A stretch of DNA of 64,000 nucleotides from Chloroflexota bacterium (GTDB lineage Bacteria; Chloroflexota; UBA11872; VXOZ01): contig OZ219802.1 of NCBI GenBank assembly GCA_964291655.2, positions 1,280,001-1,344,000 of the forward strand. Reading direction: 5' to 3'. Of this stretch, positions 28,697-49,419 are shown piece after piece. The notes beneath the pieces were generated by a model that saw only the letters and a program-made list of their open reading frames with translations, did not search any database and was not told the origin of the DNA. The position numbers and the translations under genes are program-made. The number at the start of each line of letters is the position of its first letter. The first letter of the stretch is position 1.

Positions 28697-30454
28697 TCAC
28701 CCTAACCCTCTCCCCCAGGAGAGGGAACCGGATCTGCTCAACGCGCTAGGCACTGAACTCCTCTCCAACACTCCAATGAGAGGGGACCGAATCTGCTCCT
28801 CGTACGCTTGGCTCCGCAATCTGCCCCCTCTCCCAGGAGAGGGAACCGGGCCTGCTCCGCATGCTCTTGGCTCCGTTTTCTGCACCCTCTCCCTGGGAGG
28901 CTGTCTCAATATTTTGGTGCGGGGCACGGTGAATGGGGTGAGAAGGACAGACAGATGGCGGGTGGTATGAACAAGACGGTGCCAGTGAGAGACTCGTCCC
29001 CGGGGCGACGCTGGACTACACCCAGACCGCCACAGGGCGTGGAGGCTCTTGAGATTGAACGCGGTGGCCAGCAGGTGCCATTCGGACGTCACGTGGCTGC
29101 GGCCTCTGAGCAGGAAGCGCCTGGCACTGTGCCACTCCTTGAGCAGGCCAAAGACCGGCTCGACGATGGTACTCCGGCGGCGGTACACCTGCTTGGCAGG
29201 CGCGGTGGCCATCAACTGCCTGTGCCGTTGCAGTATTGGCTCGTAGGCGCTGATCTTTATGGAGCGGCCCCTCTGGGAGGAGGTGCAGACGCCGAAGGCC
29301 GGACAGGTTCTGCAGTCCCGGCCGTTGGCTTGGTACCGCTTGACCCGGTAGCCGTTGCTGTGGGTCAAGCGGTGCGTGTAGGTGAGCACCTTTTGCTGGG
29401 GACACAGGTAGGTGTCGGTCTCTGGACGGTAGGTGAAGTGGTCTTTATGGTAGGGGTTGCGGCGTCTGCGCTCGTGGGTCGTGGGCATCAATACCGTGTG
29501 GCCGCCGGCGTGGCACGTGGCGAGGTTGGCCCCCGAATGGTAGCCGGCGTCCGCAACGGTCACCACGTCCCGCGCGGCGTCGATGTTCTCCTGCGCCGCC
29601 TCGATCAGCGGCGCCAGGTGGGGATGGTCGTCGGCACTGGCGCTCACGTCCACGGCTGTGATCAACCTCCCCCCTGCGCCCTCGTCCGGGGACGCAAGAG
29701 GGGAGACCAGCGCCTGGGCGTTGTAGCCGGTGATGAAGCCACCCATGCCAGTCTTGAGCAGGGCCGCGTCCGCATCAGTCAGGTTCGTGTAGCGCGGCCC
29801 GTCCTCAGCCGCGACGCGGGCGAGCGCGTCGTCCACCCGCCGCCGCAGGGCCTGGGCATCGGCAAGTTCCTGCGGCAAAGTCGCTGGCGGCGCGTCGCCC
29901 CCCGTGGCGTTCTGCGCCTCCAGGTCCGCGATCGCTTGCTCGGTGCGGGACAACAGCCGCTGCAGCCCCTGCGCGTCGTGGGTATGCCGCGTCCCGGCGT
30001 TGGCCGCGATCCTGGTGCCGTCCACCGCCTGGATTGCCAACTCCACCAGGCCGGCTCGCACCGCCGTGCGCACCGTGCGCTTGAGCAGCATCCGCATCCG
30101 GTCGCGGTGCGCCTTGTAGAAGCGCCACAGCGTGTTGTGGTCCGGCTGCTGCATCCCCACCAGCCACAGGTACGGTACCTGATCCCGGCAGGCTGCCTCC
30201 AGCTTGCGGCTCGAGCGCACGCCGGTCATGAAGCCGTAGACCCATACGCCCAGCAGCGCGCGCGGATGGTAGGCCCCGGCGCCACGCGGATCGCCTTGCA
30301 GGTCAATCTCCATCGCCTCCCAGGCCGCAGCATCGAGGCTGTCCACGAACGCTGCCGCAAACCTGACAGGATGGTCGTCCGGGATCAGTTCGTCCAGCGT
30401 CGGCGGCAACAGCCAGGCCTGTTCACGACTAAACGGTCTCAACGGCATCGTCAC
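28697..30454 (-). CDS. IS1182-family DDE transposase (ORF runs past the element end)
   Basis: REQAWLLPP..DHPVR (DUF772), PDHNTL, VDGT, GYNAQ, ADAGY, zinc finger, RSTIVEPVFG. Confidence 0.92.
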   Translation of the reverse strand: MTMPLRPFSREQAWLLPPTLDELIPDDHPVRFAAAFVDSLDAAAWEAMEIDLQGDPRGAGAYHPRALLGVWVYGFMTGVRSSRKLEAACRDQVPYLWLVGMQQPDHNTLWRFYKAHRDRMRMLLKRTVRTAVRAGLVELAIQAVDGTRIAANAGTRHTHDAQGLQRLLSRTEQAIADLEAQNATGGDAPPATLPQELADAQALRRRVDDALARVAAEDGPRYTNLTDADAALLKTGMGGFITGYNAQALVSPLASPDEGAGGRLITAVDVSASADDHPHLAPLIEAAQENIDAARDVVTVADAGYHSGANLATCHAGGHTVLMPTTHERRRRNPYHKDHFTYRPETDTYLCPQQKVLTYTHRLTHSNGYRVKRYQANGRDCRTCPAFGVCTSSQRGRSIKISAYEPILQRHRQLMATAPAKQVYRRRSTIVEPVFGLLKEWHSARRFLLRGRSHVTSEWHLLATAFNLKSLHALWRSGCSPASPRGRVSHWHRLVHTTRHLSVLLTPFTVPRTKILRQPPRERVQKTEPRACGAGPVPSPGRGGRLRSQAYEEQIRSPLIGVLERSSVPSALSRSGSLSWGRGLG

Positions 30455-34431: not shown

Positions 34432-35448
34432 TTAGTGTCTCAGCGACCTGATAATCGGACCCTCTGCCAACATCTGCGCGAGTTGCCCGGCGCGGTCAAC
34501 CCGTCCGAAATAGTTGCAGGGAATGACGTCGAACGGCTCCAGGCGGCGCATGAGTTCATCGAGCAGCAAGTTCTGGCCGATATTGTCAGTGGCGTAGTGA
34601 GGCAAACGCACCAGGGCGATGCCGTGCTCGCGGCAGGCCGCTACTGTCTCCGACCCCGCCGAGACTTGCACCACAGTTTGCACGCCAGCCTTTGCCAGCA
34701 ACGGAAATGCGCTGGGCGGATAGGCGTAGCCGCCGGCAAACTTCGCGTGCATGCGTCCGGTGAGCTGCGCCGGGTCGCCCGTCATGATACGGGGCACCGC
34801 GCCGATGCGCGCGGCTTCCTGCATTTCCGGTAGCGTCAGCATGAGTTCTACGACGTCGCCGACGGTCTCCGGCTCTTCGCGCGCAAAGAGCGCGTTGATG
34901 TATTGCCGGTGCGCATAGTCAACCGGTGTATGAATGCATGCCAGCGGATACCCAAGCAACTGCGCGGTATCGGGCCCGATGCGGTGCATGTCTTCGTGCT
35001 CCCGCAAGCGTGCCGCCATGAAGTCGAAGATGCAGGCGCGCGCCTCAGTTTCGGGTACACCTTCCCAAATGAGATAGTCGGCGTTGACCTCCATGAAGTC
35101 GGCGACGAGCGAAGCTGAGATGCCGACACTGTTCGTATGGTGGGAAATGAATGCGTCTATTGGGGTGCCCTTTGCCGCCAGTTGTACCCCAAGCAGCATC
35201 TCTTGCACGTGCAGGTTAATGCCGACGAGCGCAGTGCGAATCGGTGTTTCTGCCGGGCCGTGGGATATGCGCACGTCGCCGTAGGGATTACGAAAGCGCT
35301 CCTGATCGTAGAGTGCCTGCTGCCAAGCAGGCAGAGCGGCATACTCGTCGCGGCGTCGCTGTAGTTGGCGCTCTATGGCCGCCTGACCCCTGGGGTCAAG
35401 CTCGCGGCCGATTTCGATGGACGTCTCGTACAAATCACGTAGAGTCAT
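34432..35448 (-). CDS. NIF3/DUF34-like metal-binding protein (paralog 1)
   Basis: DPRG, NPYGD, ISHH, CIHTPVD, H-x-x-x-DNIGQNLLLD. Confidence 0.75.
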   Translation of the reverse strand: MTLRDLYETSIEIGRELDPRGQAAIERQLQRRRDEYAALPAWQQALYDQERFRNPYGDVRISHGPAETPIRTALVGINLHVQEMLLGVQLAAKGTPIDAFISHHTNSVGISASLVADFMEVNADYLIWEGVPETEARACIFDFMAARLREHEDMHRIGPDTAQLLGYPLACIHTPVDYAHRQYINALFAREEPETVGDVVELMLTLPEMQEAARIGAVPRIMTGDPAQLTGRMHAKFAGGYAYPPSAFPLLAKAGVQTVVQVSAGSETVAACREHGIALVRLPHYATDNIGQNLLLDELMRRLEPFDVIPCNYFGRVDRAGQLAQMLAEGPIIRSLRH

Positions 35449-35719: not shown

Positions 35720-37078
35720 ATGTTGCGGCGAGTTGCGATTGTTGGCGGAGGTATTTCAGGTCTGGCCGCCGCCTGGGCGCTTAGTCATCACCCGGACCGC
35801 TTTGACTTCCGGCTGTACGAGGCGCAGGCCCAGATTGGCGGGAATGCGATTACGGCCGATATGCCGCAGGAAGACGGCTCCTCAATCCCTTTCGACATTT
35901 CCGTCACCGCCTGTATCCCGTCGGTCTACCATCACATTCTCTTGCTGATGGAGCAATTTGGCATTGATCTGATCGATACCAAGTTTAGCTACAGCGTGAA
36001 ATACCGCGGCCAAGTGTATGCCCACGACTTCGATTCCGAAATTAGAGAGCAACTGCGGTTCGAGATCCAGAAGTTCCAGCAACTCCTGCGGCGTCTCCAC
36101 TGGTTTGGCGGGCTGACTCGTTCCCAGTCGAAGCTGCTCAACGCTCTCAACCCCTTCAACTACCTAAGCATGGGGACGCTGCTGAATTGGGGAGCCTATT
36201 CCGGTGATTTCAGATTCAAGATTCTGAAGCCGATGTTCGTCAATTTTCTCATGGCGACGAACGTGTTCGATATGCCCGCGTCGCTCTTTGCGCGGTATCT
36301 TGAATTCTTCGACATCGAGAGCGCCACGCCGATGCAGACGTGGGACCAGGGAACGCGGCGTATCTACGAGAATCTATCGGCTGGTTTCCAAGACAAGATC
36401 TACCTCAGTAGGCCGGTACGCAAGGTGTGTCGACAGGAATCCCGCGTCGTGGTGGAGGACGAAGCCGGTGGCCGAGAGGTCTACGATGAAGTCATCTTCG
36501 CCTGCAACGCGAACCAGACGCTGATGATCCTCGACAAGCCCACGTTTCTGGAGCGGTATATTCTCTCTTCAATTCGCTACGAGAGCGAGCTGCACAACCA
36601 CACCGTCGTCCACTCGGATTCCTCAGTCTTGCCGGACAACGAGGTGAAGCCTCTGACAACCCGGAGCAATCACATCGAACAGTACGGCGCCAGGCCGGAC
36701 AACTATGAAATCACGTACATCATGCACAACCAGCAACCGTGGGCTAATCGCTCGGATAAGCCGTGCCTGGTGACGTATAACCCGATCAGTCCCATCGATG
36801 AGCGAAAGGTCGTGAAGAAGTGGTGGTTTCAGCACATCGTCCACGACGTGCGTCACGTCGCGTGGCTCGTGAACATCTTTCGCTTCATTCAGGGCAAGCG
36901 GCGGACGTGGCACTGCGGCGCGCACACCCTGGTCAACAGTCAAGAGACCTGCTTCGTGACCGGGCTCGCAGCGGCACGGCAGCTCGGTGCGAACTACCCC
37001 TTTGACAATCCCGGGGCAAGGCGCATGTTCAACTACTACGGCAGGATCATGTACGGTTGGCGCTTCAGGAAGGCGTAG
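35720..37078 (+). CDS. FAD-dependent oxidoreductase (COG2907/amine-oxidase-like)
   Basis: VAIVGGGISGLAAAW, YEA..IGG, YDEVIFAC, VHSD, QGKRRTWHCGAH, QETCFVTGL. Confidence 0.8.
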   Translation: MLRRVAIVGGGISGLAAAWALSHHPDRFDFRLYEAQAQIGGNAITADMPQEDGSSIPFDISVTACIPSVYHHILLLMEQFGIDLIDTKFSYSVKYRGQVYAHDFDSEIREQLRFEIQKFQQLLRRLHWFGGLTRSQSKLLNALNPFNYLSMGTLLNWGAYSGDFRFKILKPMFVNFLMATNVFDMPASLFARYLEFFDIESATPMQTWDQGTRRIYENLSAGFQDKIYLSRPVRKVCRQESRVVVEDEAGGREVYDEVIFACNANQTLMILDKPTFLERYILSSIRYESELHNHTVVHSDSSVLPDNEVKPLTTRSNHIEQYGARPDNYEITYIMHNQQPWANRSDKPCLVTYNPISPIDERKVVKKWWFQHIVHDVRHVAWLVNIFRFIQGKRRTWHCGAHTLVNSQETCFVTGLAAARQLGANYPFDNPGARRMFNYYGRIMYGWRFRKA

Positions 37079-37532
37079 GGCTGCATGCCGCGGCTGCTCC
37101 TGAGTGTCTCAACCCTGTCAGCGAGTCTTGCCGCGACACCGCCCGCTAGCAAACCGTAGCACGGAAGCTTGTCCCCCGCTGGAGCGGCTGCGCCAGGGCG
37201 GAGAAGATGGATTCCCGCGTGCGCGGGAATGACGGATGCGGTCAGCTTCCGTGGCAATGACGGATACTGCCCGCTTCCGCCGTGGCACGGCAATGACCGA
37301 TGCTCTCCGCTTCCGCCGTAGCGCGGGGGCTTGTCCCCCGCTCTTGTGCTTGAGCACGAAGGCTGAAGACCCGGTGGTGAAATGTGGTTGCGGGAAAGAG
37401 AAGATGAATTCCGGCTTGCACCGGAATGACGGACTGGGGTGTTGCCTGGTTTAAAGAGCTGGCGGGCCGATTCTTAAAGAGTCGACACAACCGATTACGC
37501 AACTTGGGGCTGTGCAAACTCCCGCTGAGGCA

Positions 37533-38585
37533 TCAAGAAGTCGCGTTGCCGTTTTCGCTCACGTCGGAATAGAATTGGGCGCAGTAGCGACGGTACCTGG
37601 TGATCTCGCCGTCGGAACGGCAGAGGCGCGGGCGGGACTGATACCGTTTGCGGCTCCAAATGACCTCATCTTGCCGTACTTCCCATACTTGCTGCGACGC
37701 GGTAAACCAGTTCATGATTGGCGCGCGCATGCCCACCGGCAGAAATCCCAGGCCTGCGAGCCAGCGTTTCGGCTTGCGCAACTCCCGCACTTGCGAGGCC
37801 AGCGACATGTCGATGAACGTGCCGTCCACCGGTGTCGCCAGCACCCAGAGACGCATGTCCATACCGATCGAGTGTTCGCGAATGTCCACGAATGAGTAGC
37901 CAAGCCCGTGGACATGCGTGTCGGCGGTAAGATCAAACGTGAGTTTTGCGACTCTCGCAATCGAACGGGTGGACCTGAAGTTGAAACGGCTCCTCAGATA
38001 GGGACCGTCCACAGACACCGGCTCAATACGTTCCACCTTGCCAAAGCCGTGGATGTAGCGCAGGTGGGCCAGGTCCACCGCGTTTTCCGAAGTCTCCTGG
38101 GGATGGCCGGCAAAGCGCACCGTGCGGATCGCGAGATCGCACCAATCGTCATCGTCGGACGCAACCGCGGGTAGGTGCCATTGCGGCTCCCGATCTTGAA
38201 TGCCATACCACGCAAAGATCATGCCGACGATCTCCTGCGTCTCAAACACCCGCAGGACAGTGTGCCGTGGCGCCGGGGCATACGGCGTGGCCACGCACGT
38301 GCCGGTGGCATCGAACTCATAGCCGTGAAATGGACATACCAGCCGGCCATCACGCACGCGCCCCCCGGCAGCAGGGCTCAGGTCGGAGCCCAGGTGCGGG
38401 CAATAGGCCTCGGCAACGCAGATTTGGCCACTATCGTCGCAATACACGACGATGTTCTCACCCATCCAGGTCTTGTGGATGAGCTTTTCTTTCTCGATGT
38501 CCTTGCGGCTGGCGACGAAGTACCAACCCTCCGGAAATGGAGAAGGTATGGCAGCAGACACGAGCATGGGGGAGGAGGTTTGCAT
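37533..38585 (-). CDS. Rieske oxygenase, cholesterol 7-desaturase (Neverland/DAF-36)/KshA-like
   Basis: CPHLG...CPFHG Rieske cluster; ENAVDLAHLRYIH mononuclear Fe motif; DEVIWSRKRY..P.LC..DG.I..YRRYCAQFY tail. Confidence 0.85.
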   Translation of the reverse strand: MQTSSPMLVSAAIPSPFPEGWYFVASRKDIEKEKLIHKTWMGENIVVYCDDSGQICVAEAYCPHLGSDLSPAAGGRVRDGRLVCPFHGYEFDATGTCVATPYAPAPRHTVLRVFETQEIVGMIFAWYGIQDREPQWHLPAVASDDDDWCDLAIRTVRFAGHPQETSENAVDLAHLRYIHGFGKVERIEPVSVDGPYLRSRFNFRSTRSIARVAKLTFDLTADTHVHGLGYSFVDIREHSIGMDMRLWVLATPVDGTFIDMSLASQVRELRKPKRWLAGLGFLPVGMRAPIMNWFTASQQVWEVRQDEVIWSRKRYQSRPRLCRSDGEITRYRRYCAQFYSDVSENGNATS

Positions 38586-38615
38586 AACTGAAATCCGGAC
38601 ACACTAAGTTGAGGA

Positions 38616-38655
38616 TTGACATGTGAGTGTCTGTCGGGTAGTGTACACTTATAAT
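38616..38655 (+). promoter_or_regulatory. Putative promoter in the divergent Rieske/P450 intergenic region
   Basis: TTGACA (38616)-17-TAGTGT (38639) overlapping AGTGTACACT, followed by TATAAT at 38650. Confidence 0.5.
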
Positions 38656-38826
38656 AACATATGTCGTGTACATCCCCTACTGCCGCTAGGTTTACTATTG
38701 CCAGCGACTACATTTCGCTTCCCAATTTTCGCCCTACCCATTGCCCGTGAAGCCGAGTCATCACTTTCCGGTGGTGCGATGCGCCAGGGCGATCTGGACC
38801 AATCCTGACCCCTGGAGGCAACGCAA

Positions 38827-40860
38827 GTGACAATCGCAACCGACCGTGTAACCACCCATGAGCTGACGTTGCCTCAAGAACTCGTCCTGATGCTCCTCAA
38901 TGAGGAGACCGGCTACTTTCGCCAAGTGGCCGGCTGGGACCTCAACTGCGCCATCATCGGCGGCGTATTAGCGGAACTCTCGCTGAGAGCCCGTATTGAC
39001 ACAGACATGGAGTCTCTCAAACTCCTGGATCCGACTCCGACGGACAATCCAGTCTTGGATCCAATTCTGGAAAAGATTGCCGAGGAACCGGAAGCACATA
39101 ACGTGCAGTATTGGATCGAGCGGCTTGTTTTTCGCGCCCCGGCAATCGTCGACCAGATCATGGAACGCTTGGTTGAGTTGAAGATTCTGGACTACCACGA
39201 CGGTGAATTCTGGACGCTGTCCCGGTCTTCGTGGCGGACGGAACTGTACACCGACTTCCGTGAAGTCACTGCGGCGGAGTTCGTCGAGACACGCGTGAGC
39301 CGGGCGATCTTCGATAATGAGATTCCCAGCCCACGGGATGTCATCATCATCGCCCTTCTCAATACGTGCGATGTCCTGCGCTTCATATTTCAACTCGAAG
39401 AGGCCTCAGAGGAGCGAATCCAGACTATCTGTAGGATGGAGTTGATTGGCCGGTCCATCGCGGATGCGGTAGCCAACAACTTTGCCGGAGGCATGCTCCG
39501 GCGCTCCGCCCTTGCCAAATCGATTCCGGTTGTCCCATTGCACAAGGTTTTGCTGAATCCGCATTTGCGCAGCGGCAACATTGCGGCGATCTTTGCGGAA
39601 TTTGGAAATGAGTACGGCCCGGTGTTTCAGTTGCGCCCGCCCTTTTCCGAGCCACTGTATTTCATAGGCGGGCCCCGCGTAAATCAATGGGTGCAACGAA
39701 ACGGGCGGCAGTACCTACGGGCGCGGGATTACTTTGCCGACTTCGAGAAAGTCTTCGGCGCGTCCGGGCTCATACCCGCGGTGGATGGGGCCGACCACTT
39801 CCGGCTGCGCAAGGCCATGTCACCGGGGTATTCACGCGAGAGATTGGAAGCGCAACTGGATGAGGTCTATGGCAACGCCCGCACGTATATGGCGGATTGG
39901 AAGGTCGGTGACTCTTACTCTGCGCGGTCGCTGTGCCGGCGGATGATCAATGCGCAAATTTCGCCGTTCACCGTCAGCATTGATTCACAAGACATCGTCG
40001 ACGATCTCATGGCATACAAAGAACGGGGCCTCTGCACACACGTCGCGCGGGTTCTACCCAAGTTCATGCTCTATACCCCCGGCATGAGACGCCGGGCGAA
40101 AATCGTCAATGAGGTGACGAACCGGGTCCAGCAAGTCCATACGCCCGCCCAGCGCGCGGGTCGTCCACGGGATCTTGCGGATGACCTTCTCAGCCTTCAG
40201 GCCAGCGACCCGCAGTTCCTGCCGGAGTCGAATATGCCGTTCATGCTCTCGGCGCCGCTGCTTGCCAGCATGTACTTGGGCGATGCGCTGAGCTTTGCGG
40301 TCTACGCCATGGCGGCGCAGCCCGAAATCTACGCACGGATACAGAAAGAAGCCGACGCCTTGTTTAGCGATGGCGATCCCCAGGGCAAAGACTTCACCCT
40401 AGAAGCACTGGACGTGACGCACCGCTTCATCATGGAGGTCATGCGCATGTACCCGGTCGTGCCCATGTCTATTCGCAACGTCATGAACGCCTGCGTGGTG
40501 GAAGGCTTTGAGTTGCCGGTGGGCGCGCGGATCCATATTGCTACGACCGCCTCACACTACATGGAGAAGGCCTTTCCCGAACCCTTCAAATTCGACATTG
40601 AACGCTATACGGCGCCGCGCTTTGAGCATCGCAGCCGGGCGTACGCCCCCTACGGCCTGGGTACGCACACTTGTCTCGGCACCCGGTTTATGGAGCGGCA
40701 ACTGACAATCAACCTACTCATGATCGCGCACTACTTCACGCTCGAGGTATCCCCCGATAAGTTCAAGCACAAGCTCACGTTCAGCCCGTTCCCGTCCAAC
40801 AAACCGAGCGGAAAGCTGAAGTTCGTCATTTCCGATCAGAGACGCGAGATAAACGTCTAA
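38827..40860 (+). CDS. GPP34 (GOLPH3/Vps74-like) domain fused to cytochrome P450
   Basis: N-term LTLPQELVLMLL..GGVLAELSLRARI; C-term EVMR (ExxR), PFKFDIERY, YGLGTHTCLG heme ligand. Confidence 0.85.
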   Translation: MTIATDRVTTHELTLPQELVLMLLNEETGYFRQVAGWDLNCAIIGGVLAELSLRARIDTDMESLKLLDPTPTDNPVLDPILEKIAEEPEAHNVQYWIERLVFRAPAIVDQIMERLVELKILDYHDGEFWTLSRSSWRTELYTDFREVTAAEFVETRVSRAIFDNEIPSPRDVIIIALLNTCDVLRFIFQLEEASEERIQTICRMELIGRSIADAVANNFAGGMLRRSALAKSIPVVPLHKVLLNPHLRSGNIAAIFAEFGNEYGPVFQLRPPFSEPLYFIGGPRVNQWVQRNGRQYLRARDYFADFEKVFGASGLIPAVDGADHFRLRKAMSPGYSRERLEAQLDEVYGNARTYMADWKVGDSYSARSLCRRMINAQISPFTVSIDSQDIVDDLMAYKERGLCTHVARVLPKFMLYTPGMRRRAKIVNEVTNRVQQVHTPAQRAGRPRDLADDLLSLQASDPQFLPESNMPFMLSAPLLASMYLGDALSFAVYAMAAQPEIYARIQKEADALFSDGDPQGKDFTLEALDVTHRFIMEVMRMYPVVPMSIRNVMNACVVEGFELPVGARIHIATTASHYMEKAFPEPFKFDIERYTAPRFEHRSRAYAPYGLGTHTCLGTRFMERQLTINLLMIAHYFTLEVSPDKFKHKLTFSPFPSNKPSGKLKFVISDQRREINV

Positions 40861-40899
40861 TGCACCATGGATCGCCCGAGAAACCGGGAAGGAGAGGGA

Positions 40900-41937
40900 C
40901 TAAACGGGCTTAAGAGCCAGGAAACAATATAGCGGCGTGAAGATCCCGGTCTTGCCGCCCGCGACGTAGGCGTTGGCAGTCCGATCCAGCAGCTTGACGA
41001 CACGGGCGGAGCCCGATGGGAACACCCCCAGCACCTCGGCCAACCTGGATGCCCCGAAAACTGCCTTGCGGCCCAGCGGAAGCCTGATAAGGGCGTTGCC
41101 GAGCGTTCCGTGCCGGGTCTCCATGGGCCGATACCACGGCGTGGTCGGACCGTTCTCCCCAACAGCCCGATCCCTCCCTTCTATGACCTGAAAACCCGCC
41201 GTTTCGAGGTCGCGGTTTACCTCGTCCATCGTCGCTATTTCTTTGAGCGCGATCCCGTGCATCAGTTCTTTCTCAATAGCTCGATGTCGCTCGTCACCGG
41301 GATTGAACTTGCTCGTCATGCACATTTCCTGGCCCCAGAACAGGGCCCCGGGTTTCAGCACGCGGTAGATCTCGGCAAACGCGCCCGCCTTGTCCGGCGC
41401 ATGGCACGTCGATTCAATCGCGTACCCCCGGTCGAATGTGTCGTCCGCGATAGCGTCCATGTTCATGAAGCTACACGCGAGGTAGTCGATCGCATGGTCG
41501 AGTCCCGCCTCGGCGTCCAACGATCTCGCCTTGTCCAACTGGATTTCGTTGCTATTGACCCCGACTACCCTGACTCCGGCCTCCCGGACGACGCGGCGCA
41601 GCGGGCCGCCGACCCCGCAACCGACATCGATCACCGTCATGCCCTCGCGCAACTCCAACTTGGCGATCATCAGCCGCTGGTGACGGATCTTGGAGTCCTC
41701 CAGGCTTTCATGGGGCGACAGCGGTGCGAAGTGAAGGGACTCACCCCAACCGAACTCCATGAACTCGCCGCAGAGGTCGTAGTATTCCTTGACGGTTTCG
41801 GTGTGGTCGTAGCCCGTCGGGACGGCGTCCTCCACGTGTGCTTTGTCCATCCAGCCATCGAAGCGATTCACGCGACTGTGGACATCCGTTCCACGGTATT
41901 GAGCCTTCAGCCGGTTGGATAGTTTGCGGATTTGCAA
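40900..41937 (-). CDS. Sterol 24-C-methyltransferase-like (ERG6/SMT family)
   Basis: YYD..., MEFGWGESLHF, IDVGCGVGGP, YAIESTCHAP, IYRVLKPG, PWY, GGKTGIFTP. Confidence 0.88.
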   Translation of the reverse strand: MQIRKLSNRLKAQYRGTDVHSRVNRFDGWMDKAHVEDAVPTGYDHTETVKEYYDLCGEFMEFGWGESLHFAPLSPHESLEDSKIRHQRLMIAKLELREGMTVIDVGCGVGGPLRRVVREAGVRVVGVNSNEIQLDKARSLDAEAGLDHAIDYLACSFMNMDAIADDTFDRGYAIESTCHAPDKAGAFAEIYRVLKPGALFWGQEMCMTSKFNPGDERHRAIEKELMHGIALKEIATMDEVNRDLETAGFQVIEGRDRAVGENGPTTPWYRPMETRHGTLGNALIRLPLGRKAVFGASRLAEVLGVFPSGSARVVKLLDRTANAYVAGGKTGIFTPLYCFLALKPV

Positions 41938-41964
41938 GGATCTTTCCTTTGCGGAGTACTGTTC

Positions 41965-44424
41965 CTACTCGTAGCGCCGCTGCACGGCCTCGATTTCCAG
42001 GTCCAACTCATCCGCCCAGCGCTTCACCTTGGATCGCAGCCGGACATTCTGGTAGGCGCCCCAGATTGTCATCGCAGGTGGAACCAGCAGAATGGACACT
42101 AACAGCGAGTAGAGGATCGTGATGGATGCCGCAATTGCGAACTGCTGGGAAGCAAGCAGGGGCGAGGCAATTAGCGCGCCAAGTCCGAGCGCCGTCGTGA
42201 GCGCGGAACCCAACAGCGCCGAACCGGTGGTGGCGAGTGTCCGAATTGCCGCTTGCTCCGGGTCCCGACCGCGGGCGTATTCCTCCCGGTAGCGATGAAT
42301 CACGTGGATGGTGTAGTCCACCCCGATACCTACCGAGAGCGCCGTGATGATAGACGTGACGAGCGAATAGGGAATATCCAGCAGCGCCATGGTGCCCAAC
42401 ACCGAGATGAGCACGAGCACAATCGGGCCCACCGCGATGACGGATAGCACCGGCTGGCGCACCGTGATCCAGAAGAAGAGCGCCAGCACGCCGAGGGCCA
42501 CCGCGATGGTGGTAGTAATCGCTTCTGTCTGCCGTTCAGTAATGGCGTCCGTGATTGTGATACCAATGATGCCCTCAGATGTTGCTGCGATAGCGTTGTC
42601 ATCACCGATCCAGAGGTCCTCCAGGGACTCTTGGATTTGCTTCGCCTGATTGGTATCGCCCGAGTAGGCCGGGAACTGGATCAGCATTGCGTCAGTGCCG
42701 GCCGGATCGTTAACCAGGAGATACGAAAGCGTCGGGTCCAGGGATTGGAGCCTGTTGAGGAATTCCTGCATCAACCCGGCATCAAGTCTCAGTCCCGCCG
42801 AGGCTTCTTGGAAAAGGGCGGCAAGTTCAGAATCGTATTTGTCGCCGGGCTGACCGCTGTCGTGTATCCAGTCTCGCACGAGGAGCTCATACGATGCCTG
42901 GATTGGTCCCGCCGCGGCGGCGGGACGGCTCTCTTCGTCCGCGAAGGCAGCGGTCAAGTCCCGCAGGTTCAACAGCGTGCGGGTCTCTGTGGCCTCCGCT
43001 CTGATGAGCACACTAACTATCTCCGTTGAGCCGCCAATTGCCGCATCAATGGTGTCCAAGTCCGCCATCAGGGTGCCCCCTCTGGGCAGAATGTCGCGGA
43101 TGTTGAACTCAGACTTGATCCCTGTGGCTGCGTACCCCAGCGCGAGCGTAACCCCAAGCACAACAATGAGGTACGGCGCAGGCGCGCGCGTGATACTTTT
43201 GCCCAGCACGGTCGCCAATCCCTCGATTCCGGGCAATGCCGTAGCTACCAAGCGAGGCTGCTTAAGATTGCCCCGGGCTTCCCGCTGCCGGTCGATGATC
43301 GTCCGGCCGGCCGGAAGCAGCGTAAGCATCACGATGAGAGTCATGCCCACACCCAGTCCTGCGATCAAACCGAAATCACCAATGATTCCTATAGGGGAAA
43401 ACAGACTCACCAGCAGGCTCACGATTGTCGTGACGGCGGCCAGTACCAGCGGAATGGTGACTTTGCGCAGTCCGATCTGGGCGGCCGGTACCACCGCCTC
43501 GCCTTCGTGACGCTGCTCCCGGTAGTGCGAGACGATCTGAATCGCGTAGTCGACCGTAAGGCTGATTACGATGATCGGCACCATCGCGGTAAGCTGGTTT
43601 GGCGGTCCGGTGATGCCCAGCGCGTAGGGACCCAGCCAGCCTTCCACACCAACGATCCACATCAGCGAAATAAACAGACCGGCCAGCGTGAGCAATAAAT
43701 CAGTCAACGTACGCAGGAAAAGCAGGATTAGCCCCGCGATGAGCAAGAGCGCCAGCCCGATCAACGGCCCCATGCCTTCTTGGGTAGCTTTCTTGTACTC
43801 GTCCTCGATTATCGCGGGTGAAACGCTGCTCACCTGCAGCGTACCCTCAGACGCGGCTGCAAGTTCGTCAATTTTGCGTTCAGCGTCGTCAATGCGCTCA
43901 TCACCCGTGTCCCGCAGACGAACAATGGCAATCGCCACCTCTGTACCATCCGTATCGGTGCCGGTCAGGGCGTCAAGCGCCGCCTGAATCTCGGGTGGGC
44001 CGCGGGCCGCGTTGATTTGCTCCTGTGTGATGGACGTGACGTTGTCCGTTTGGAGCACAGCCTTGATCAACAACACGGGCGCGACGAGGGGATTGACCGG
44101 CGCGAAGAGCTCCTGAACGGCAGGATCGGCGACGATCTCGTTGATCAGGGCATCCATCTGCGCCAGACCGTCAGGCGTCAGCGCGTCTCCACGGAAGATG
44201 AGCGTCACCACATTGGCTTCGCCGGATTCGCCAAAGAGCTCATCGATTTCAGCAATGGCGTCGGCAACGGTACTCCCTGGAGGAAGTATTGCCTCGTCTC
44301 CGGGAGGAGGCGCACGCCGTACCGCCCCGGCAGTCAGGAAAACGGTTATGTTCAGGATGACGAAAATCGTGATCCAAGGGCGGGCTGTAACAAAGCGGCT
44401 CAGCCTACCAAGTTGATTCTCCAT
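41965..44424 (-). CDS. MMPL/RND family lipid transporter
   Basis: Two 1+5 TM repeats; LTVDYAIQ..YRE and GIGVDYTIH..YREE motifs. Confidence 0.88.
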   Translation of the reverse strand: MENQLGRLSRFVTARPWITIFVILNITVFLTAGAVRRAPPPGDEAILPPGSTVADAIAEIDELFGESGEANVVTLIFRGDALTPDGLAQMDALINEIVADPAVQELFAPVNPLVAPVLLIKAVLQTDNVTSITQEQINAARGPPEIQAALDALTGTDTDGTEVAIAIVRLRDTGDERIDDAERKIDELAAASEGTLQVSSVSPAIIEDEYKKATQEGMGPLIGLALLLIAGLILLFLRTLTDLLLTLAGLFISLMWIVGVEGWLGPYALGITGPPNQLTAMVPIIVISLTVDYAIQIVSHYREQRHEGEAVVPAAQIGLRKVTIPLVLAAVTTIVSLLVSLFSPIGIIGDFGLIAGLGVGMTLIVMLTLLPAGRTIIDRQREARGNLKQPRLVATALPGIEGLATVLGKSITRAPAPYLIVVLGVTLALGYAATGIKSEFNIRDILPRGGTLMADLDTIDAAIGGSTEIVSVLIRAEATETRTLLNLRDLTAAFADEESRPAAAAGPIQASYELLVRDWIHDSGQPGDKYDSELAALFQEASAGLRLDAGLMQEFLNRLQSLDPTLSYLLVNDPAGTDAMLIQFPAYSGDTNQAKQIQESLEDLWIGDDNAIAATSEGIIGITITDAITERQTEAITTTIAVALGVLALFFWITVRQPVLSVIAVGPIVLVLISVLGTMALLDIPYSLVTSIITALSVGIGVDYTIHVIHRYREEYARGRDPEQAAIRTLATTGSALLGSALTTALGLGALIASPLLASQQFAIAASITILYSLLVSILLVPPAMTIWGAYQNVRLRSKVKRWADELDLEIEAVQRRYE

Positions 44425-44735: not shown

Positions 44736-45701
44736 CTAGTTGCGCTTGACGCGCTCGAAGTAGTTACATGCTATGACGTTGAGCGGCCCTAGGCGCTGCT
44801 CAACCTTATCGAGCAATAGGTTGAGACCCACATTATCGCACGCGCCATGGGGCATGCGCACCCAGCCCATACCGAGTTCTTCCGCTATCTTCTGGTGCTC
44901 AGGCGGGCAGCCAATGGTGACGAACGTGCCGACTCCGGCCTCCCTCAGCAGCGGGATCACCTCAAAGGGAAACATCCAACCACCGCCGTCCTGGTGGAAG
45001 ATCCGGCCCGCCGGCTGCTCGGCATCACCTGCCATAATGCGCGGGATCGCGCCAATGCGCGCCGCACCTTGGAACTCCGGGAGCGCCAGCAACGCCTGCA
45101 CCACGTCTCCCACCGTCTCCGCGTTCGCTGCCGCGATGGCGCCGCGCACACCCCGGCCGTGATGGAAGTCGGCGGGCGTATGGATGCACGCCAGCGGAAA
45201 CTCCAGCAGTTGCGCCATGTCGATGCCGTTGCGGTTGAAGTCCTCGGCGTAGTTCCAGCGGTCGGTCATCATGTCCGCGATGTGGGGCTCGGCGTCGGCC
45301 CGGGCAACACCCGCGCCTTCAAGCAGGTCCACGAGATAGGGCACTGTATCATAGATCAGCGTATCCGCCGGTACCCCGATGCCGTTGGTATGGTGGGAGA
45401 TGACGGCATCGATTCGCGTGCCGTTGGCGCGCAGATGGTCCGCCAGCAGAAGCTCCTGCGTGCCGATGTTTATGCCCATGAGGATGGTATCGAGTTCCGT
45501 GTCCTCCGGGCCGTTCACGATGCGCACGTCGCCGTAGGGATTGTTGAAGCGCTCCTGGTCGTAGTACGGCTTGCGCCAGTCCGCCAGCGCTGTATACTCC
45601 TGCCGTCGCCGTTCAAGCTGGCGGTCAAGGGCTTCACGCCCCCTAGGATCGACCTCACGGCCGATTTCGATGGAAGTTTCGTAGAGCTCGCGTAAGGTCA
45701 T
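44736..45701 (-). CDS. NIF3/DUF34-like protein (paralog 2)
   Basis: Same motifs as paralog 1; its start overlaps the paralog 3 stop (ATGA). Confidence 0.78.
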   Translation of the reverse strand: MTLRELYETSIEIGREVDPRGREALDRQLERRRQEYTALADWRKPYYDQERFNNPYGDVRIVNGPEDTELDTILMGINIGTQELLLADHLRANGTRIDAVISHHTNGIGVPADTLIYDTVPYLVDLLEGAGVARADAEPHIADMMTDRWNYAEDFNRNGIDMAQLLEFPLACIHTPADFHHGRGVRGAIAAANAETVGDVVQALLALPEFQGAARIGAIPRIMAGDAEQPAGRIFHQDGGGWMFPFEVIPLLREAGVGTFVTIGCPPEHQKIAEELGMGWVRMPHGACDNVGLNLLLDKVEQRLGPLNVIACNYFERVKRN

Positions 45702-46666
45702 CGCTCGTTACGCCTAATTCGCTCGAAGTAGTTGCACGGAATGACATTGAGCGGTCCCAAGCGGCGCTCTACCTCATCCAGCAGTAAATTGATGCCAATG
45801 TTGTCGCACGCCGCGTGGGCAATGCGCACAATCGCTACGCCCGCCCCCTGTGCCGCTAACGCTTGCGTCGGTGTGCACCCAATTTGCACCACGGTGTTCA
45901 CGCCTGCCTTGCCGAGCAGCGTGTACGCGTCCGGCGGCAAGCCGTACCCGCCGCCAAACTTGAGCAGCATGCGCCCGGCAGGCCATCTTGCTTCCCCACT
46001 CATCACACGCGGCTCAACGCCAATATGCGCCGCGCTCTGCACCTCCGGTATCACCATGAGCGCCCGCACCACGTCAGCAACGGTCTCGGGCCTTGCAGCT
46101 TCCACCACAGGCCGGACGCCTTCGCCAATGTAGTAATCTGCCGGCGTATGGATGCAGGCCAGCGGGAAGCCGAGCAACGCTGCCATGTCGGGGCCCATGC
46201 GTGCCGTATCTTCAAGCGCCTGCTCTTTTTCCTCGATGTAACGGTTGATGCACGCCTCGGCGTCTCCGCGCGGCACGCCTTCACCTGCCAGAAAATCTAT
46301 CGCTACCGGCATGAAGTCATGTACCAGCGAGATAGCGATGCCGATACCATTGGTATGGTGCGCGATTACGGCATCGATCTTGGTACCCTTGCTGCGCAGC
46401 CGGTCGGCCAGCAGGAGTTCGTCGAGGCCGATGTTGATGCCGAGCAGGACTGTCTGAAGCTCCACGTCCGCCGGGCCGTTGACGATACGCACGTCGCCAA
46501 AGGGATTGCGAAACCGCTCTTGATCGTAGAAGGGCTGCTCCCAATCGGGCAGGGCTGCGTATTCCGCCCGGCGCTGCTCGAGTTGCTGTTGAAGAGCTGC
46601 CTCTCCCCGCACGTCAAGCGCCATGCCGAGTTGTATTGAAGTCTCGTAGAGTTCTCGCAGTGTCAT
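45698..46666 (-). CDS. NIF3/DUF34-like protein (paralog 3)
   Basis: MTLRELYE, NPFGD, IAHH, CIHTPAD, HAACDNIGINLLLD. Confidence 0.78.
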   Translation of the reverse strand: MTLRELYETSIQLGMALDVRGEAALQQQLEQRRAEYAALPDWEQPFYDQERFRNPFGDVRIVNGPADVELQTVLLGINIGLDELLLADRLRSKGTKIDAVIAHHTNGIGIAISLVHDFMPVAIDFLAGEGVPRGDAEACINRYIEEKEQALEDTARMGPDMAALLGFPLACIHTPADYYIGEGVRPVVEAARPETVADVVRALMVIPEVQSAAHIGVEPRVMSGEARWPAGRMLLKFGGGYGLPPDAYTLLGKAGVNTVVQIGCTPTQALAAQGAGVAIVRIAHAACDNIGINLLLDEVERRLGPLNVIPCNYFERIRRNER

Positions 46667-46988
46667 GTTGGCACTCTTCGTTTCGCTAACTTGCACCTAT
46701 TGTAGCGCATTGGCAAACCGCAGCCGAAATCGAGGTGCGTAAAGCCCTTGGCAAGGTGAGCAAACAGCTTTCCACCTGGCATTTTGCTTGAGAGAGCACC
46801 CGCTCCACGCAGCCATGGCGGCTCAAGTTGCACACTACGAGCGGCCGGCAGTTGTGCGGTCAGTCCTCATACAGGCTAATGGGGGCAGCAAATCAGCATT
46901 TTGGCGCTCTCACCCGACAAATGCGGGCTCTATCGTTTAGAATTGCGTTGTAGCATGAATGCCGCATCAAACACAAGGATGTGACACG

Positions 46989-47471
46989 ATGCAAATCGCG
47001 AACCAGTATTCGTTCATCTTCATCGGGGTCTTCGTGGTATCACTTTGCATTTTTGCCGCCGCTCAGTGGTTTCCGGGGACCATTGGCTTGCTGGCTATAC
47101 TCCTCTCGCTGGTTGGCTTCATTGCGATTGGCTCGGTCTCGCGGTATCGAGATGACGATACCAGTGGGACTCCGCCGGATGCCCTGATCGGTAGAGGACT
47201 GCCGGTGCTGTTAGCCGTGTATTCTAATTTCTGAGCGGGGTGCCTTGTGGCACGCCCCATCGTCGATGGGATAGAACGCGATCTTGGCGACGCAGTGCGG
47301 GTCATCCGGCTGAACCGGCACACGCCGGCGGGACGGGCGATTACGGCCCGCCTTGGCTTGCGCCTGGTGCCGTCCTTCGTGGTCTTCGACGGGCAGGGCG
47401 AGGTACGGCTGCGCAAGGATGGCATTGTGATCAAGCACCAGCCGGTGCTGGATGCGCTCGGCCACGAGTAG
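46989..47471 (+). CDS. Probable selenoprotein: membrane-anchored thioredoxin-like, UxxC
   Basis: ORFs in frame across TGA 47232-47234: VYSNF-U-AGC-LVARPIVD...VPSFVVFD; two N-terminal TM helices. Confidence 0.8.
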
Positions 47472-47742
47472 CTGGTCCTCTTCTCGGCCAACGGGACGCG
47501 CGGCGTGATTGCAAATTCGCCGTCCCAGCACCGCTTCTCCGGGCCCTGCCACGGAATCAATAACTCCTGCCGCGACGACGCCCCACCGCCACTCGAGTGC
47601 TGAGTGCGGGAGGGATACGCTGCCTGCATCAAGATGGAGCAAGCATTCCTCCTCGTTTTGGAGTAACGGCCTGATCCCTATTTTCGCAGTGTGCTATAGT
47701 TTCAATACAACAATGGGAAGACGGTCGGAACGGATAGACGCA

Positions 47743-48228
47743 ATGCGGTTCGTCAACCAGTACTCCTACCTCTTATTCGTAGTCTTTGTCCTCCCTGCCA
47801 GCGCGGTGGCAGCCTATTTTTGGTTGCCGGAGGCTGCTGGCTTGGCGCTTGTAACGCTGGTTGGCCTTGGTCTTGTCGCCGTGGCGTACCTCCTGCGCTA
47901 TCGTGAAACGCACCTCACCGACACCGCGGCATTGGATGGGCTCATCGGTAAGGGCTCGCCGGTCATTGTCGTCTTGTTCTCCCACTACTGAGCGAAAAGC
48001 CTCGCGGCACGCCCCACGGTCGATGGGATTGAGCGAGAATTCGGCGAGACTGCGCACATCGTGCGGCTCAGCCAGCATACGCCCGTCGGACGCGCCTTCG
48101 CGGACCGTCTGGATATACACGCGGTGCCATCCCTTGTCGTCTACGACGAGGCGGGCGAGGAGCAACTGAGGTTCATGGAGAGCATCCCCAGCCCGCAGAA
48201 GCTCGCTGCCGCGTTGCAGCAGGAGTAA
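47743..48228 (+). CDS. Probable selenoprotein: membrane-anchored thioredoxin-like paralog, UxxS
   Basis: Reading through TGA 47989-47991 gives LFSHY-U-AKS-LAARPTVDGIER...VPSLVVYD to TAA 48228; aligns with 46989-47471 on both sides of the UGA. Confidence 0.78.
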
Positions 48229-48390
48229 GGCACACTCTCTTGCCATGGGCCGCGCTTTGCGTTGCCCGGTACCGTTGCTTGGGCCGCCCCACGGAAACCG
48301 CCCGCCAAGACCAACGTACCCCGTCTGTAGTCGATGAGCGACCCGCGCTATACTGTAGAGAAACTTTCTCTCGCCCTCGAGGAGCATGTC

Positions 48391-49419
48391 GTGAGCAAGC
48401 AAACAGTGCTGCCGCCGTTGCAGTCCGAAGAACAACTCATGGCGCAGATGACCGCGCCCACGCCGGAAGTGTGTACAGCGGTGCAGGCGCTGGACGGCGA
48501 CATCATGGTGCTGGGTGTGGCGGGCAAGATGGGCCCTACGCTCGCGGAGCTATTGGTGCACGCGGGGGCCAAGCGCGTGATCGGCGTTTCGCGCTTTTCC
48601 TCTCCGGACTCGCGCCGTTACTTGGATAGCGTCGGCGTGGAGACGGTGGCCTGCGACTTGCTGGACGACGCAAGCGTGGCCAAGCTGCCGGATGCGCCGT
48701 ATCTTTACTTGCTGGCGGGGTTCAAGTTCGGCTCCAGCGGCGCGCCTTCCCTGAACTGGGCCATGAATACGCTCGTGCCGGCCAAGCTCATGGAGCGCTT
48801 TCCCAATTCCCGCATGGTCTACGTGTCTTCCGGCAACGTCTACCGCTTCATGCCGGTGGACGGCGGTGGCGCTGATGAAGACGCGCCCCTGGGGCCGGTG
48901 GGTGAATACGCCGAATCCCGCCTGGGCGGCGAGCGCCTGGTGGAATACTACGCAGAAAAGAACAGCACCCCTACCCTCATCGTGCGGCTCTTCTACGCCA
49001 CGGAACTGCGCTACGGCATCATCCTGGATATCGCTACCAAGGTGAATGACCGGACGCCAATCGACCTATCTATGGGCTACGTAAATCAGATTTGGCAGGG
49101 CGACGCCTGCGACATGCTCGCCCGCTCGTTCCCGCTCTGCGCAAGTCCTGCTGACGTGATTAATCTGACCGGCACGGAAACCCTTTCCGTGCAAGCGGTG
49201 GCTGAGGCTTTGGGTGAACGGCTCGGTGTCGCGCCGATCTTCACCGGGAAGCCGGAGGCTACGGCGCTACTGGGCGATGCGACGCGCTACGTGGAGACCT
49301 TCGGCGCGCCCCGCGTACCGGCGGAACAGATTATCGACTGGGTTGCCACGTGGGTCAAGCACGAAGGCGCGACGCTGGGCAAGCCGACGAAATACGAGAG
49401 CAGGACGGGGGATTTCTAA
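48391..49419 (+). CDS. NAD-dependent epimerase/dehydratase
   Basis: GVAGKMG, SSGNVY, YAESR. Confidence 0.85.
   Translation: MSKQTVLPPLQSEEQLMAQMTAPTPEVCTAVQALDGDIMVLGVAGKMGPTLAELLVHAGAKRVIGVSRFSSPDSRRYLDSVGVETVACDLLDDASVAKLPDAPYLYLLAGFKFGSSGAPSLNWAMNTLVPAKLMERFPNSRMVYVSSGNVYRFMPVDGGGADEDAPLGPVGEYAESRLGGERLVEYYAEKNSTPTLIVRLFYATELRYGIILDIATKVNDRTPIDLSMGYVNQIWQGDACDMLARSFPLCASPADVINLTGTETLSVQAVAEALGERLGVAPIFTGKPEATALLGDATRYVETFGAPRVPAEQIIDWVATWVKHEGATLGKPTKYESRTGDF

Follow-up and report, generated by a model that had tools for sequence, protein, structure and literature searches.

A GPP34-P450 gene cassette shared across phyla of sponge-associated bacteria, probably for sterol tailoring and export, in a Chloroflexota genome without sterol synthesis

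Five adjacent genes within a 64,000-nucleotide stretch of a Chloroflexota genome (contig OZ219802.1 of assembly GCA_964291655.2; hereafter the window) encode a flavoprotein, a Rieske oxygenase, a fusion of a GPP34 domain to a cytochrome P450, a predicted sterol methyltransferase (SMT) and a transporter of the MMPL family. The genome, here G000 (other G-numbers are compared genomes and L-numbers are fetched loci), measures 3.47 Mb in 2 contigs and is 97.55% complete. Between 35597 and 44424 lie five long intact open reading frames (ORFs) in the order flavoprotein(+), Rieske(-), P450(+), SMT(-), MMPL(-), and a Pfam scan of 42 ORFs in the window backs all five assignments (Table 1). A first-pass annotation had proposed the same genes, order and strands, and the ORF list and Pfam matches confirm them coordinate for coordinate. 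Its flavoprotein start at 35720 is preferable to the beginning of the longest ORF at 35597, because orthologues are 452-462 aa long and cover 91-93% of that 493-aa frame.

The MMPL gene sits 27 bp upstream of the SMT gene on the same strand. The Rieske and P450 genes diverge from an intergenic region presumed to be a control region common to both, and this divergent pair is retained in most loci of the same genus. Only the 3' parts of the two genes survive in G003 and G007, where they adjoin each other in what looks like a deletion spanning that intergenic region.

Table 1. Genes and intergenic control-region candidate of the five-gene cassette (window positions).
Feature	Coordinates	Strand	Evidence and remarks
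Flavoprotein	35720..37078	+	Amino_oxidase 60.4 bits, NAD_binding_8 (Pfam); longest ORF begins 35597
Rieske oxygenase	37533..38585	-	Rieske 66.9 bits and KshA_C 86.7 bits (Pfam)
Divergent Rieske/P450 intergenic region, 241 bp	38586..38826		presumed shared control region
GPP34-P450 fusion ('GPP34_L'), 677 aa	38827..40860	+	GPP34 98.6 bits and p450 128.4 bits (Pfam)
SMT	40900..41937	-	Methyltransf_11 59.7 bits and Sterol_MT_C 49.9 bits (cut-off 21.7)
MMPL transporter	41965..44424	-	MMPL 172.9 bits in two stretches; Sterol-sensing, Patched (Pfam)

The SMT contains the Sterol_MT_C domain (PF08498, residues 288-344) and the S-adenosylmethionine motif DVGCGVGGP, which is invariant in an alignment with SMTs of bacterial sterol clusters and present in 120 of 128 family members. 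The region-I motif FGWG.S.HFAP is also present, the window protein having FMEFGWGESLHFAP, and the pattern [FWY]GW[GN].S.HF occurs in 98 of the 128; we take YE[FY]GWG.S.HF to be the region-I aromatic sterol-site motif. Identity to the sterol-cluster SMTs of L053, L060, L086 and L045 is 38-42%, and the Protein Data Bank (PDB) holds no close solved relative. The protein is thus predicted to be a sterol C-24 methyltransferase of the SMT/ERG6 family and an accessory member of the cassette.

The most conserved cassette gene encodes an LkcE-like, flavin adenine dinucleotide (FAD)-dependent oxidoreductase of the amine-oxidase superfamily. Among the matches listed, at least 120 orthologues are 80-98% identical, with 80-90% identity across phyla; few carry names, and the named sources are Chloroflexi/Chloroflexota, Acidimicrobiaceae and Gemmatimonadetes/Gemmatimonadota. 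A profile of these orthologues matches LkcE over its full length in the PDB (E 1.1e-30) as well as 2b9w (E 5.3e-12), presumably a fatty-acid double-bond isomerase; because of these two matches the flavoprotein may oxidise or shift a double bond of a hydrophobic substrate. An AlphaFold2 (AF2) model built with 25 close orthologues was poor (predicted local distance difference test, pLDDT, 50.7). For both the flavoprotein and the Rieske protein, the homologues among the matches listed were only close orthologues with generic names.

KshA is the best solved relative of the Rieske protein (phmmer against the PDB, E 1.3e-29, with the alignment limited to the N-terminal ~170 residues). Both proteins combine a Rieske [2Fe-2S] domain with a mononuclear-iron domain of the KshA_C type, and the steroid nucleus is a likely substrate in both cases. 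The cluster motif CxH..CxxH and the iron-site motif DxxHx4H are both found in 68 of 72 orthologues. The enzyme could hydroxylate or desaturate the sterol nucleus, to judge from this family relationship. Neverland/DAF-36 proteins are Rieske cholesterol 7-desaturases.

In the fusion protein, the GPP34 domain covers residues 15-216 (~38869-39474) and the P450 domain residues 245-665 (~39559-40821). All 70 orthologues examined keep the haem cysteine loop and none has the canonical I-helix motif [AG]Gx[DE]T[TS]; in 63 of the 70, A[SA]xYLGDxx[SG]F stands in its place. The N-terminus enters the GPP34 fold directly at residue 15, with no hydrophobic leader by eye (no signal-peptide tool was run), and the GPP34 domain has no PDB match at E <= 0.01 by phmmer. 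An AF2 model of the fusion reached a pLDDT of 81.9, and Foldseek searches with its P450 part returned generic lipid- and sterol-type P450s, among them CYP184A1, Methylococcus capsulatus CYP51, BM3 and CYP17/21/46. Identification of the P450 as CYP51 was rejected, given 66.7 bits to CYP51 structures versus 350 bits for the CYP51 of the sterol locus L053 described below; the two proteins are 23% identical over 221 residues, with the I-helix 'AGQHTS' of the latter aligned to 'ASMYLG'. Elsewhere in G000 there is a stand-alone short GPP34 gene (G000:C2:518741-519400), 35% identical to the GPP34 domain of the fusion, which fits the short form described in the main text of PMC11706023. The surroundings of this gene and of two extra MMPL paralogues in G000 yielded no more sterol genes in blastp comparisons with cassette neighbours.

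Sterol synthesis is missing from the genome. The first-pass annotation had noted no squalene epoxidase, cyclase or ring-degradation gene in the window, in agreement with the Pfam scan of 42 window ORFs, and had proposed a whole-genome search for oxidosqualene cyclase (OSC) and squalene-hopene cyclase (SHC); that search found neither in G000. The Pfam families SQHop_cyclase_C, SQHop_cyclase_N, SE and SQS_PSY have zero matches in the whole genome, the fused squalene epoxidase-oxidosqualene cyclase (SE-OSC), SdmA and SdmB of L053 have no tblastn match at E <= 1e-8, and the best match to the L053 CYP51 is 25% identical. A cyclase match was likewise found in 0 of 17 genomes of the genus. Because G000 is without squalene synthase, epoxidase and cyclase, any sterol substrate of its cassette must be exogenous, as the first-pass annotation had supposed. 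An endogenous squalene, hopanoid or carotenoid substrate was rejected on the same genome-wide searches.

The genome does encode sterol-type reductases. A tandem ERG4/ERG24 pair lies outside the window at G000:C2:1069451-1071852 (L198:9451-11852), 210 kb from the cassette. The two proteins score 126.2 and 122.9 bits against PF01222 (cut-off 27) over model positions 75-432 of 432, and match the delta14-sterol reductase PDB 4quv at E 1e-32. In L056, L057 and L071 an equivalent tandem pair with 65-70% identity is located within 1-3 kb of the cassette, and the SMT-anchored metagenome contig L124 has one such gene. A third, full-length ERG4/ERG24 member (431-436 bits) is encoded in G001, G012, G016 and G027. 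ERG4/ERG24 is missing from five genomes of the genus (G003, G004, G005, G007 and G009), which coincide exactly with the genomes where the P450 is fragmentary or absent, and both genes carry stops in G013; since the genomes are kin, this co-loss is a pattern and not a statistical test.

Distribution was examined in 41 genomes including G000, of which 17, ten of them single contigs, belong to the genus. Seven of these 17 have the SMT orthologue, as do three genomes from two other families; the P450 and Rieske genes are more widespread. Relatives share the core order FAD-Rieske-P450-MMPL. In G000, G006, G008, G033 and G039 the SMT gene lies between P450 and MMPL; in G001, G010, G011, G016 and G027 it is located at another place in the genome, and G002, G012 and G015 yielded no SMT gene. 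Remnants consist of a P450 fragment alone in G004 and G005, and the genes carry stops in G013 and G035. Together these patterns show that the cassette is ancestral in the genus, modular and dispensable. Two further observations concern individual relatives. In G008 (L019, G008:C19 ~7760-9789), whose genes are 95-99% identical to those of the window, the fusion is split into two frames near residue 75, with one TAA, either a fresh pseudogene or an assembly error. G011 (L034, L035) has three P450-MMPL pairs, two of them in tandem with Rieske fragments between, which indicates duplication and decay of the module.

Beyond the genus, a scan with the fusion alignment, covering one genome per prokaryotic species, confirmed 380 loci, of which the best 80 were analysed. 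These span nine phyla at 60-89% P450 identity and, to go by their record titles, come from metagenome-assembled genomes (MAGs) of Chloroflexota/Dehalococcoidia (including SAR202), Latescibacterota, Nitrospirales, Gemmatimonadota, Opitutia, Acidimicrobiia, Alphaproteobacteria, Binatia and Thermodesulfobacteriota. Linkage was counted in these 80 loci of other genomes when a gene lay within 10 kb of the P450 gene at 50% identity or more (tblastn). The Rieske gene was linked in 65 loci, SMT in 55, MMPL in 49 and the flavoprotein in 48; 26 of the 80 hold all five genes, and 66 hold the P450 gene with at least two others. By estimate, 20 kb represents ~0.6% of 3.5 Mb of genome, and a single-copy gene without linkage would then turn up in fewer than one of the 80 loci; the observed linkage is far above chance. 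The synteny asked of the proposed five-gene unit is thus borne out across phyla.

These relatives also bear out the first-pass guess of sponge symbionts, as they are sponge-associated MAGs. A scan of metagenome contigs anchored on SMT recovered at least 80 loci whose identity ranges from 41 to 98%, with a single locus below 58%. One of them lies on a contig of a metagenome that the main text of PMC10070321 labels Aplysina aerophoba. Relatives occur in four runs labelled 'sponge metagenome', and a 3761-nt contig from such a run spans P450-SMT-MMPL with 118 differences. A FastTree phylogeny of the fusion proteins (70 of 81 rows, that is the 80 loci plus the window, without bootstraps; the eleven remaining rows had an ORF call under 600 aa or one not spanning the match) shows the nine phyla interspersed among short branches, their labels changing 12 times versus a minimum of 8. 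Because the fusion tree mixes phyla and the flavoprotein is 80-90% identical across them, the cassette appears to follow a pattern of repeated horizontal transfer within one habitat.

The ORFs of 160 loci (80 P450-anchored and 80 SMT-anchored) were clustered without prior labels and the recurrent neighbours annotated. In seven loci, a fused SE-OSC of ~1140-1300 aa lies beside the cassette P450: L053, L059, L060, L086 and L116, from Thermodesulfobacteriota, Nitrospirales, Binatia and Opitutales, and two metagenome contigs. The neighbour of the sterol pathway in these loci is the cassette or its P450 alone. Sterol-pathway genes found beside the cassette are SE-OSC, CYP51, ERG24, SdmA, SdmB and paralogous SMTs. 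The SE-OSC of L053 has as neighbours a separate P450 of 490 aa, unmistakably CYP51 by its match to solved structures of that family (E 1.7e-103), together with ERG4/ERG24, an SdmA-like Rieske scoring 410 bits, an SdmB-like reductase scoring 291 bits and a paralogous SMT. Two Nitrospirales loci, L045 and L101, contain ERG4/ERG24, SdmA-like and paralogous SMT genes, with no SE-OSC inside the fetched span. Their SdmA-like gene (410 bits) is distinct from the cassette Rieske gene, and loci such as these contain both. Because both sets of enzymes coexist in sterol-pathway loci, the cassette is tied to sterols, and its P450 and Rieske proteins are, on sequence grounds, extra enzymes distinct from the C-14 and C-4 demethylases. 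Identification of the cassette Rieske as SdmA was rejected (NF052579 42.4 bits versus a cut-off of 600; 21% identity to the L053 SdmA-like Rieske). With these OSC-cluster neighbours, the Sterol_MT_C domain and the ERG4/ERG24 linkage, the sterol assignment of the first-pass annotation stands. A second locus of sterol type was noted in L020 (G027:C1:1632000-1651999), where ~8900-12500 contains a Rieske gene (N-terminus 39% identical to the L053 SdmA-like protein), a paralogous SMT gene (41%) and a full-length ERG4/ERG24 gene in a 2.4-Mb genome without a cyclase.

Cyclases were surveyed in the genomes of 50 of the 80 loci, short-contig loci and part of the redundant Dehalococcoidia being left out. 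Twenty genomes had no match above the cut-off, 28 had an SHC-type cyclase and 10 an OSC-type cyclase, 8 of which also had the SHC type; the division into SHC-like (401-490 bits) and OSC-like (175-195 bits) matches is deduced from two score classes and the domain content of L053. Eight of the ten OSC-like hits lie in open frames of 1143-1315 aa. The predominance of SHC-type cyclases speaks for a cassette acting on a lipid other than a sterol, such as hopanoids, sponge terpenoids or other isoprenoids, with the 'SMT' methylating that lipid. Some algal SMT-family enzymes methylate squalene and botryococcene, and all five cassette proteins score far below the cut-offs of named equivalog models. Against this, G000 and its whole genus keep the cassette with neither SHC nor squalene synthase, the cassette adjoins OSC/CYP51/SdmAB clusters and never SHC in the loci examined, it is linked to and co-lost with ERG4/ERG24, and both Sterol_MT_C and the region-I motif are intact. 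We regard a non-sterol substrate as unlikely.

Proximity to sterol clusters could also mean that the cassette is a leftover or satellite of de novo synthesis, in a genus that lost its cyclase and is losing the rest. The P450 gene abuts a complete-looking de novo cluster in 5 of the 80 loci (three in Verrucomicrobiota/Thermodesulfobacteriota/Binatota, two in Nitrospirota), and cassette decay is widespread in the genus. However, none of the five window genes is truncated and each aligns over its whole length with orthologues that are 60-98% identical, at least 20 of the 50 surveyed genomes, from several phyla, have no cyclase above the cut-off, and the cross-phylum conservation of the flavoprotein indicates strong purifying selection and not drift. 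A decaying remnant is accordingly very unlikely.

The direction of transport bears on what the cassette does with its substrate. The MMPL protein, assigned to the HAE3-type RND transporters, scores 213.5 bits against the HAE3 model TIGR00921, below its cut-off of 351.9, and less against HpnN TIGR03480 (100.9; cut-off 751.85), NF052374 (68.7; 1100) and BstA NF045600 (22.3; 1400). For extra neighbours we used the figures of a cluster-based tally, which undercounts relative to tblastn through crude ORF calling. By this tally, MMPL is found in 45 of 53 Chloroflexota loci and 2 of 2 Actinomycetota loci, and an AcrB-type pump in Latescibacterota (6/6), Gemmatimonadota (5/5), Verrucomicrobiota (2/2), Thermodesulfobacteriota (1/1) and Binatota (1/1). 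Genes for a membrane-fusion protein (MFP) and an outer-membrane factor (OMP) adjoin the AcrB-type pumps. The enzymes stay constant and the pump type varies with the cell envelope, diderm phyla having AcrB, MFP and OMP in place of MMPL. Tripartite sets of the resistance-nodulation-division (RND) superfamily are efflux machines, and MMPL, HpnN and BstA proteins move lipids outward. Genes for an LppX_LprAFG lipoprotein and a major facilitator superfamily (MFS) protein are recurrent near the cassette in Dehalococcoidia, and they resemble the mycobacterial lipid-export pair LprG/P55. Because an AcrB-MFP-OMP efflux set takes the place of MMPL in diderm phyla, we infer by analogy a block that would modify and export, with sterols entering by partitioning. 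The first-pass annotation had assigned import to the MMPL protein; in view of this replacement, and of the lack of any Mce/MlaD-type lipid importer in genome G000, that direction is probably wrong.

Known relatives of the transporter include HpnN, BstA of the Methylococcus capsulatus BstABC system (PMC10942540) and mycobacterial MmpL, with which a likeness of the cassette MMPL is proposed: they share the RND/MMPL fold with sterol-sensing-like segments, are linked to genes that make their lipid cargo, and move membrane lipids outward. Unlike HpnN and BstA, the cassette protein falls far below the equivalog cut-offs and has no identified BstB or BstC partners.

The proposed export also separates the cassette from sterol catabolism, in which the Rieske enzyme would open ring B as in actinobacterial steroid degradation and host sterol would serve as a carbon source. 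KshA as the best solved relative, together with the KshA_C domain, favours this proposal. An SMT adds carbon, however, the linked pump is a predicted RND exporter in a genome without an MlaD/Mce importer, and neither the window nor the neighbours in the 160 loci include recognisable genes for ring cleavage or side-chain beta-oxidation. In contrast to KshA, the cassette Rieske lacks a catabolic context: kshB, kstD and hsa genes are absent from the 42 window ORFs and the recurrent neighbours of the 160 loci (the whole genome was not searched for them). Catabolism thus appears highly improbable.

Gene linkage, phyletic pattern and family membership together make it probable that the five genes are a cassette for sterol tailoring and export, passed horizontally among sponge-associated bacteria and acting here on sterols that the cell does not make. 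Host, dietary or co-symbiont sterols would partition into the cytoplasmic membrane, where four soluble or peripheral enzymes would act on them. The GPP34 domain would serve as a lipid- or membrane-targeting module holding the P450 at the inner face of the membrane. The KshA-like Rieske enzyme would hydroxylate or desaturate the sterol nucleus, the LkcE-like flavoprotein would oxidise or shift a double bond, and the SMT, in the subset of genomes that includes G000, would alkylate C-24. The tandem ERG4/ERG24 reductases encoded elsewhere in the genome could reduce double bonds of the rings or side chain, and the MMPL pump, co-directional with the SMT gene, would move the product from the cytoplasmic membrane to the envelope or surroundings.

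Several observations weigh against this reading. The cassette is fragmented or carries stops in G003, G004, G005, G007, G013, G025 and G035 and so is dispensable, and in G008, the closest relative, a stop or frameshift interrupts the P450 gene. At 7 of the 80 loci the P450 gene stands without any of the other four. Since the I-helix acid-alcohol pair is missing in 70 of 70 orthologues, the fusion P450 may not be an ordinary hydroxylase; P450s without this pair perform rearrangements of oxygenated substrates or use substrate-assisted catalysis. The 42 window ORFs scanned include no ferredoxin or reductase that could serve the P450 or the Rieske enzyme. The proposed export follows the known behaviour of the transporter family, and a hopanoid substrate is possible in the 28 genomes with a putative SHC-type cyclase. 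Finally, SMTs with demonstrated activity are not tied to this orthologue group, as the tested contig JGIcombinedJ30088_10000835 is not among the 80 SMT loci kept; contig JGIcombinedJ30088_10000014 of the same metagenome matched the window SMT at 69%.

The fusion itself has been described as a symbiosis marker. The main text of PMC11706023 (Microbiome 2025) reports it as exclusive to sponge symbionts of many phyla, and proposes that it binds phosphatidylinositol 4-phosphate (PI4P) and helps evade phagocytosis. GPP34_L of that study and the window fusion belong to the same family and share their architecture (N-terminal GPP34 and C-terminal P450 in one ORF) and their spread over many phyla. The flanks examined in the main text of PMC11706023 are those of the short GPP34 form, whereas in the present loci the fusion belongs to a sterol cassette that includes a proposed exporter. 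The words 'sterol', 'methyltransferase' and 'MMPL' do not occur in its article text (supplements being outside this scope).

Host manipulation is a rival explanation modelled on that study, in which GPP34-P450 would be delivered to or exposed on the host phagosome, bind PI4P and block phagosome maturation. Spread across phyla at 60-66% identity suits a symbiosis factor. In a merged form, the rest of the cassette would alter the sterols of the phagosome membrane, much as the sterol-modifying protein Stmp1/CBU1206 of Coxiella regulates vacuole cholesterol according to PMC8787468. The fusion is, however, tightly linked to cytoplasmic or membrane enzymes and an RND pump and shows no hydrophobic leader by eye, and its conserved haem loop and ExxR motif imply an enzyme that needs haem and electron donors. 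The rare GPP34-Rieske and GPP34-ABC (ATP-binding cassette) ATPase fusions reported in the main text of PMC11706023 also join the domain to inner-face proteins, which suits a membrane-targeting module, and the missing PDB match of the GPP34 domain gives no support for conservation of a PI4P pocket. We consider this host-manipulation reading improbable.

Bacterial sterol methylation in sponges has likewise been reported. Brown et al. 2023 (PMC10070321) showed in their main text that bacterial SMTs from a sponge metagenome methylated desmosterol and 24-methylenecholesterol in vitro. SMTs of sponge and other metagenomes clustered with sdmA, sdmB and OSC there, the cluster or MAG also contained an OSC for 13 of the 24 SMTs tested, and de novo synthesis was argued. 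These clusters and the cassette share a habitat and SMTs with Methyltransf_11 and Sterol_MT_C domains, but the clusters are read as de novo synthesis, whereas G000 and its genus are without squalene synthase, epoxidase and cyclase. A Rieske enzyme, P450 or transporter goes unmentioned in the searched passages of PMC10070321 (figures and supplements being outside this scope). Coxiella burnetii (PMC8787468) likewise has no cyclase, encodes an ERG4/ERG24-type reductase (Stmp1/CBU1206) and acts on host sterol. It has one or two reductases only, whereas the present bacteria have a cassette that joins several enzymes (an SMT, a flavoprotein and two oxygenases) to a dedicated pump; they are extracellular or phagocytosis-exposed sponge symbionts, and Coxiella is intracellular.

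The first-pass annotation knew of no described bacterial pathway with this combination. In part this was too strong, the fusion (PMC11706023) and SMT sterol clusters (PMC10070321) being in print in the main texts of those articles, yet no report joining them was found. Our search likewise found no published link of the fusion or cassette to sterols and no cyclase-less case (subscription journals and supplements being outside its scope), and the accessible part of 10.64898/2025.12.19.695621 contained no match to a link between the fusion or cassette and sterols. What the present analysis adds to that annotation is a cross-phylum mobile module, two extra reductase genes and the identity of the central gene with a published symbiosis marker.

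Which organisms make the unusual sterols of sponges has been a question since radiolabelling work of the 1970s and 1980s, and the cassette offers five cloneable candidate genes for their origin. Speculatively, and with considerable doubt on our part, symbionts from many phyla that mostly cannot make sterols may share by horizontal transfer a module that draws host or dietary sterols from the symbiont membrane, modifies them by alkylation, oxidation and reduction, and pumps the products out, so that the holobiont would make part of the sponge sterols. GPP34, published as a phagocytosis effector that binds PI4P, would then be a bacterial lipid- or membrane-targeting domain of sterol oxygenases. 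The altered sterols may let symbionts escape digestion. Side-chain-alkylated steranes are interpreted as the oldest fossil traces of animals (demosponges), an interpretation that bacterial SMTs already complicate, and a mobile SMT cassette adds to the possible sterane makers, being found in abundant symbionts that can do without a sterol pathway. Should the proposal hold, some of the famously odd sterols of sponges would be products of the whole holobiont and not just of the animal, among them the side-chain-alkylated compounds used as the oldest 'animal' biomarkers. GPP34-P450 is one of few gene families reported as exclusive to sponge symbionts, and its genomic company yields a hypothesis of sterol oxidation at the membrane that can be compared with the published phagocytosis hypothesis. 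The enzyme types are notable in themselves: a P450 without the I-helix threonine, an LkcE-like flavoprotein and a KshA-like Rieske enzyme outside catabolism.

The cassette is bracketed in the window by three paralogous genes (34432-35448, 44736-45701 and 45698-46696) with 52-60% mutual identity. The first-pass annotation had called these flanks NIF3-like, a name that holds for one paralogue through its match to PDB 3rxy, 'NIF3 protein' (E 1.7e-13), and finds no backing in Pfam, where the flanking paralogues have zero matches even at E <= 5. A fourth paralogue at G000:C1:553584-554546 completes a family of four that are 43-60% identical. Bracketing of the cassette by these genes is confined to the genus, with 1 of 80 loci elsewhere.

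The convergent gap between the flavoprotein and Rieske genes (37079-37532) contains short dispersed repeats with ~35-40 bp cores near 37198-37237 and 37315-37350, which have 155 blastn hits genome-wide. The depth of sponge-metagenome contigs peaks in this gap, with many different junctions at 37201-37341, and the element resembles a repetitive extragenic palindromic (REP) sequence or a miniature inverted-repeat transposable element (MITE). Downstream of the cassette, the paralogous ORFs 47063-47632 (189 aa) and 47773-48435 (220 aa) match no Pfam (E <= 5) or NCBIfam family; they adjoin an NAD-dependent epimerase-family gene (48334-49419), and this trio comes after the cassette in several genomes of the same genus. 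The window proteins c11 and c46 have no Pfam match at E <= 5. Elsewhere in the window lie two sulfatases, a DDE transposase and an IS481-type integrase (13505-15076, 15394-16953, 28697-30454 and 58667-59860); sulfatases, transposases and integrases are common features of sponge-symbiont genomes.

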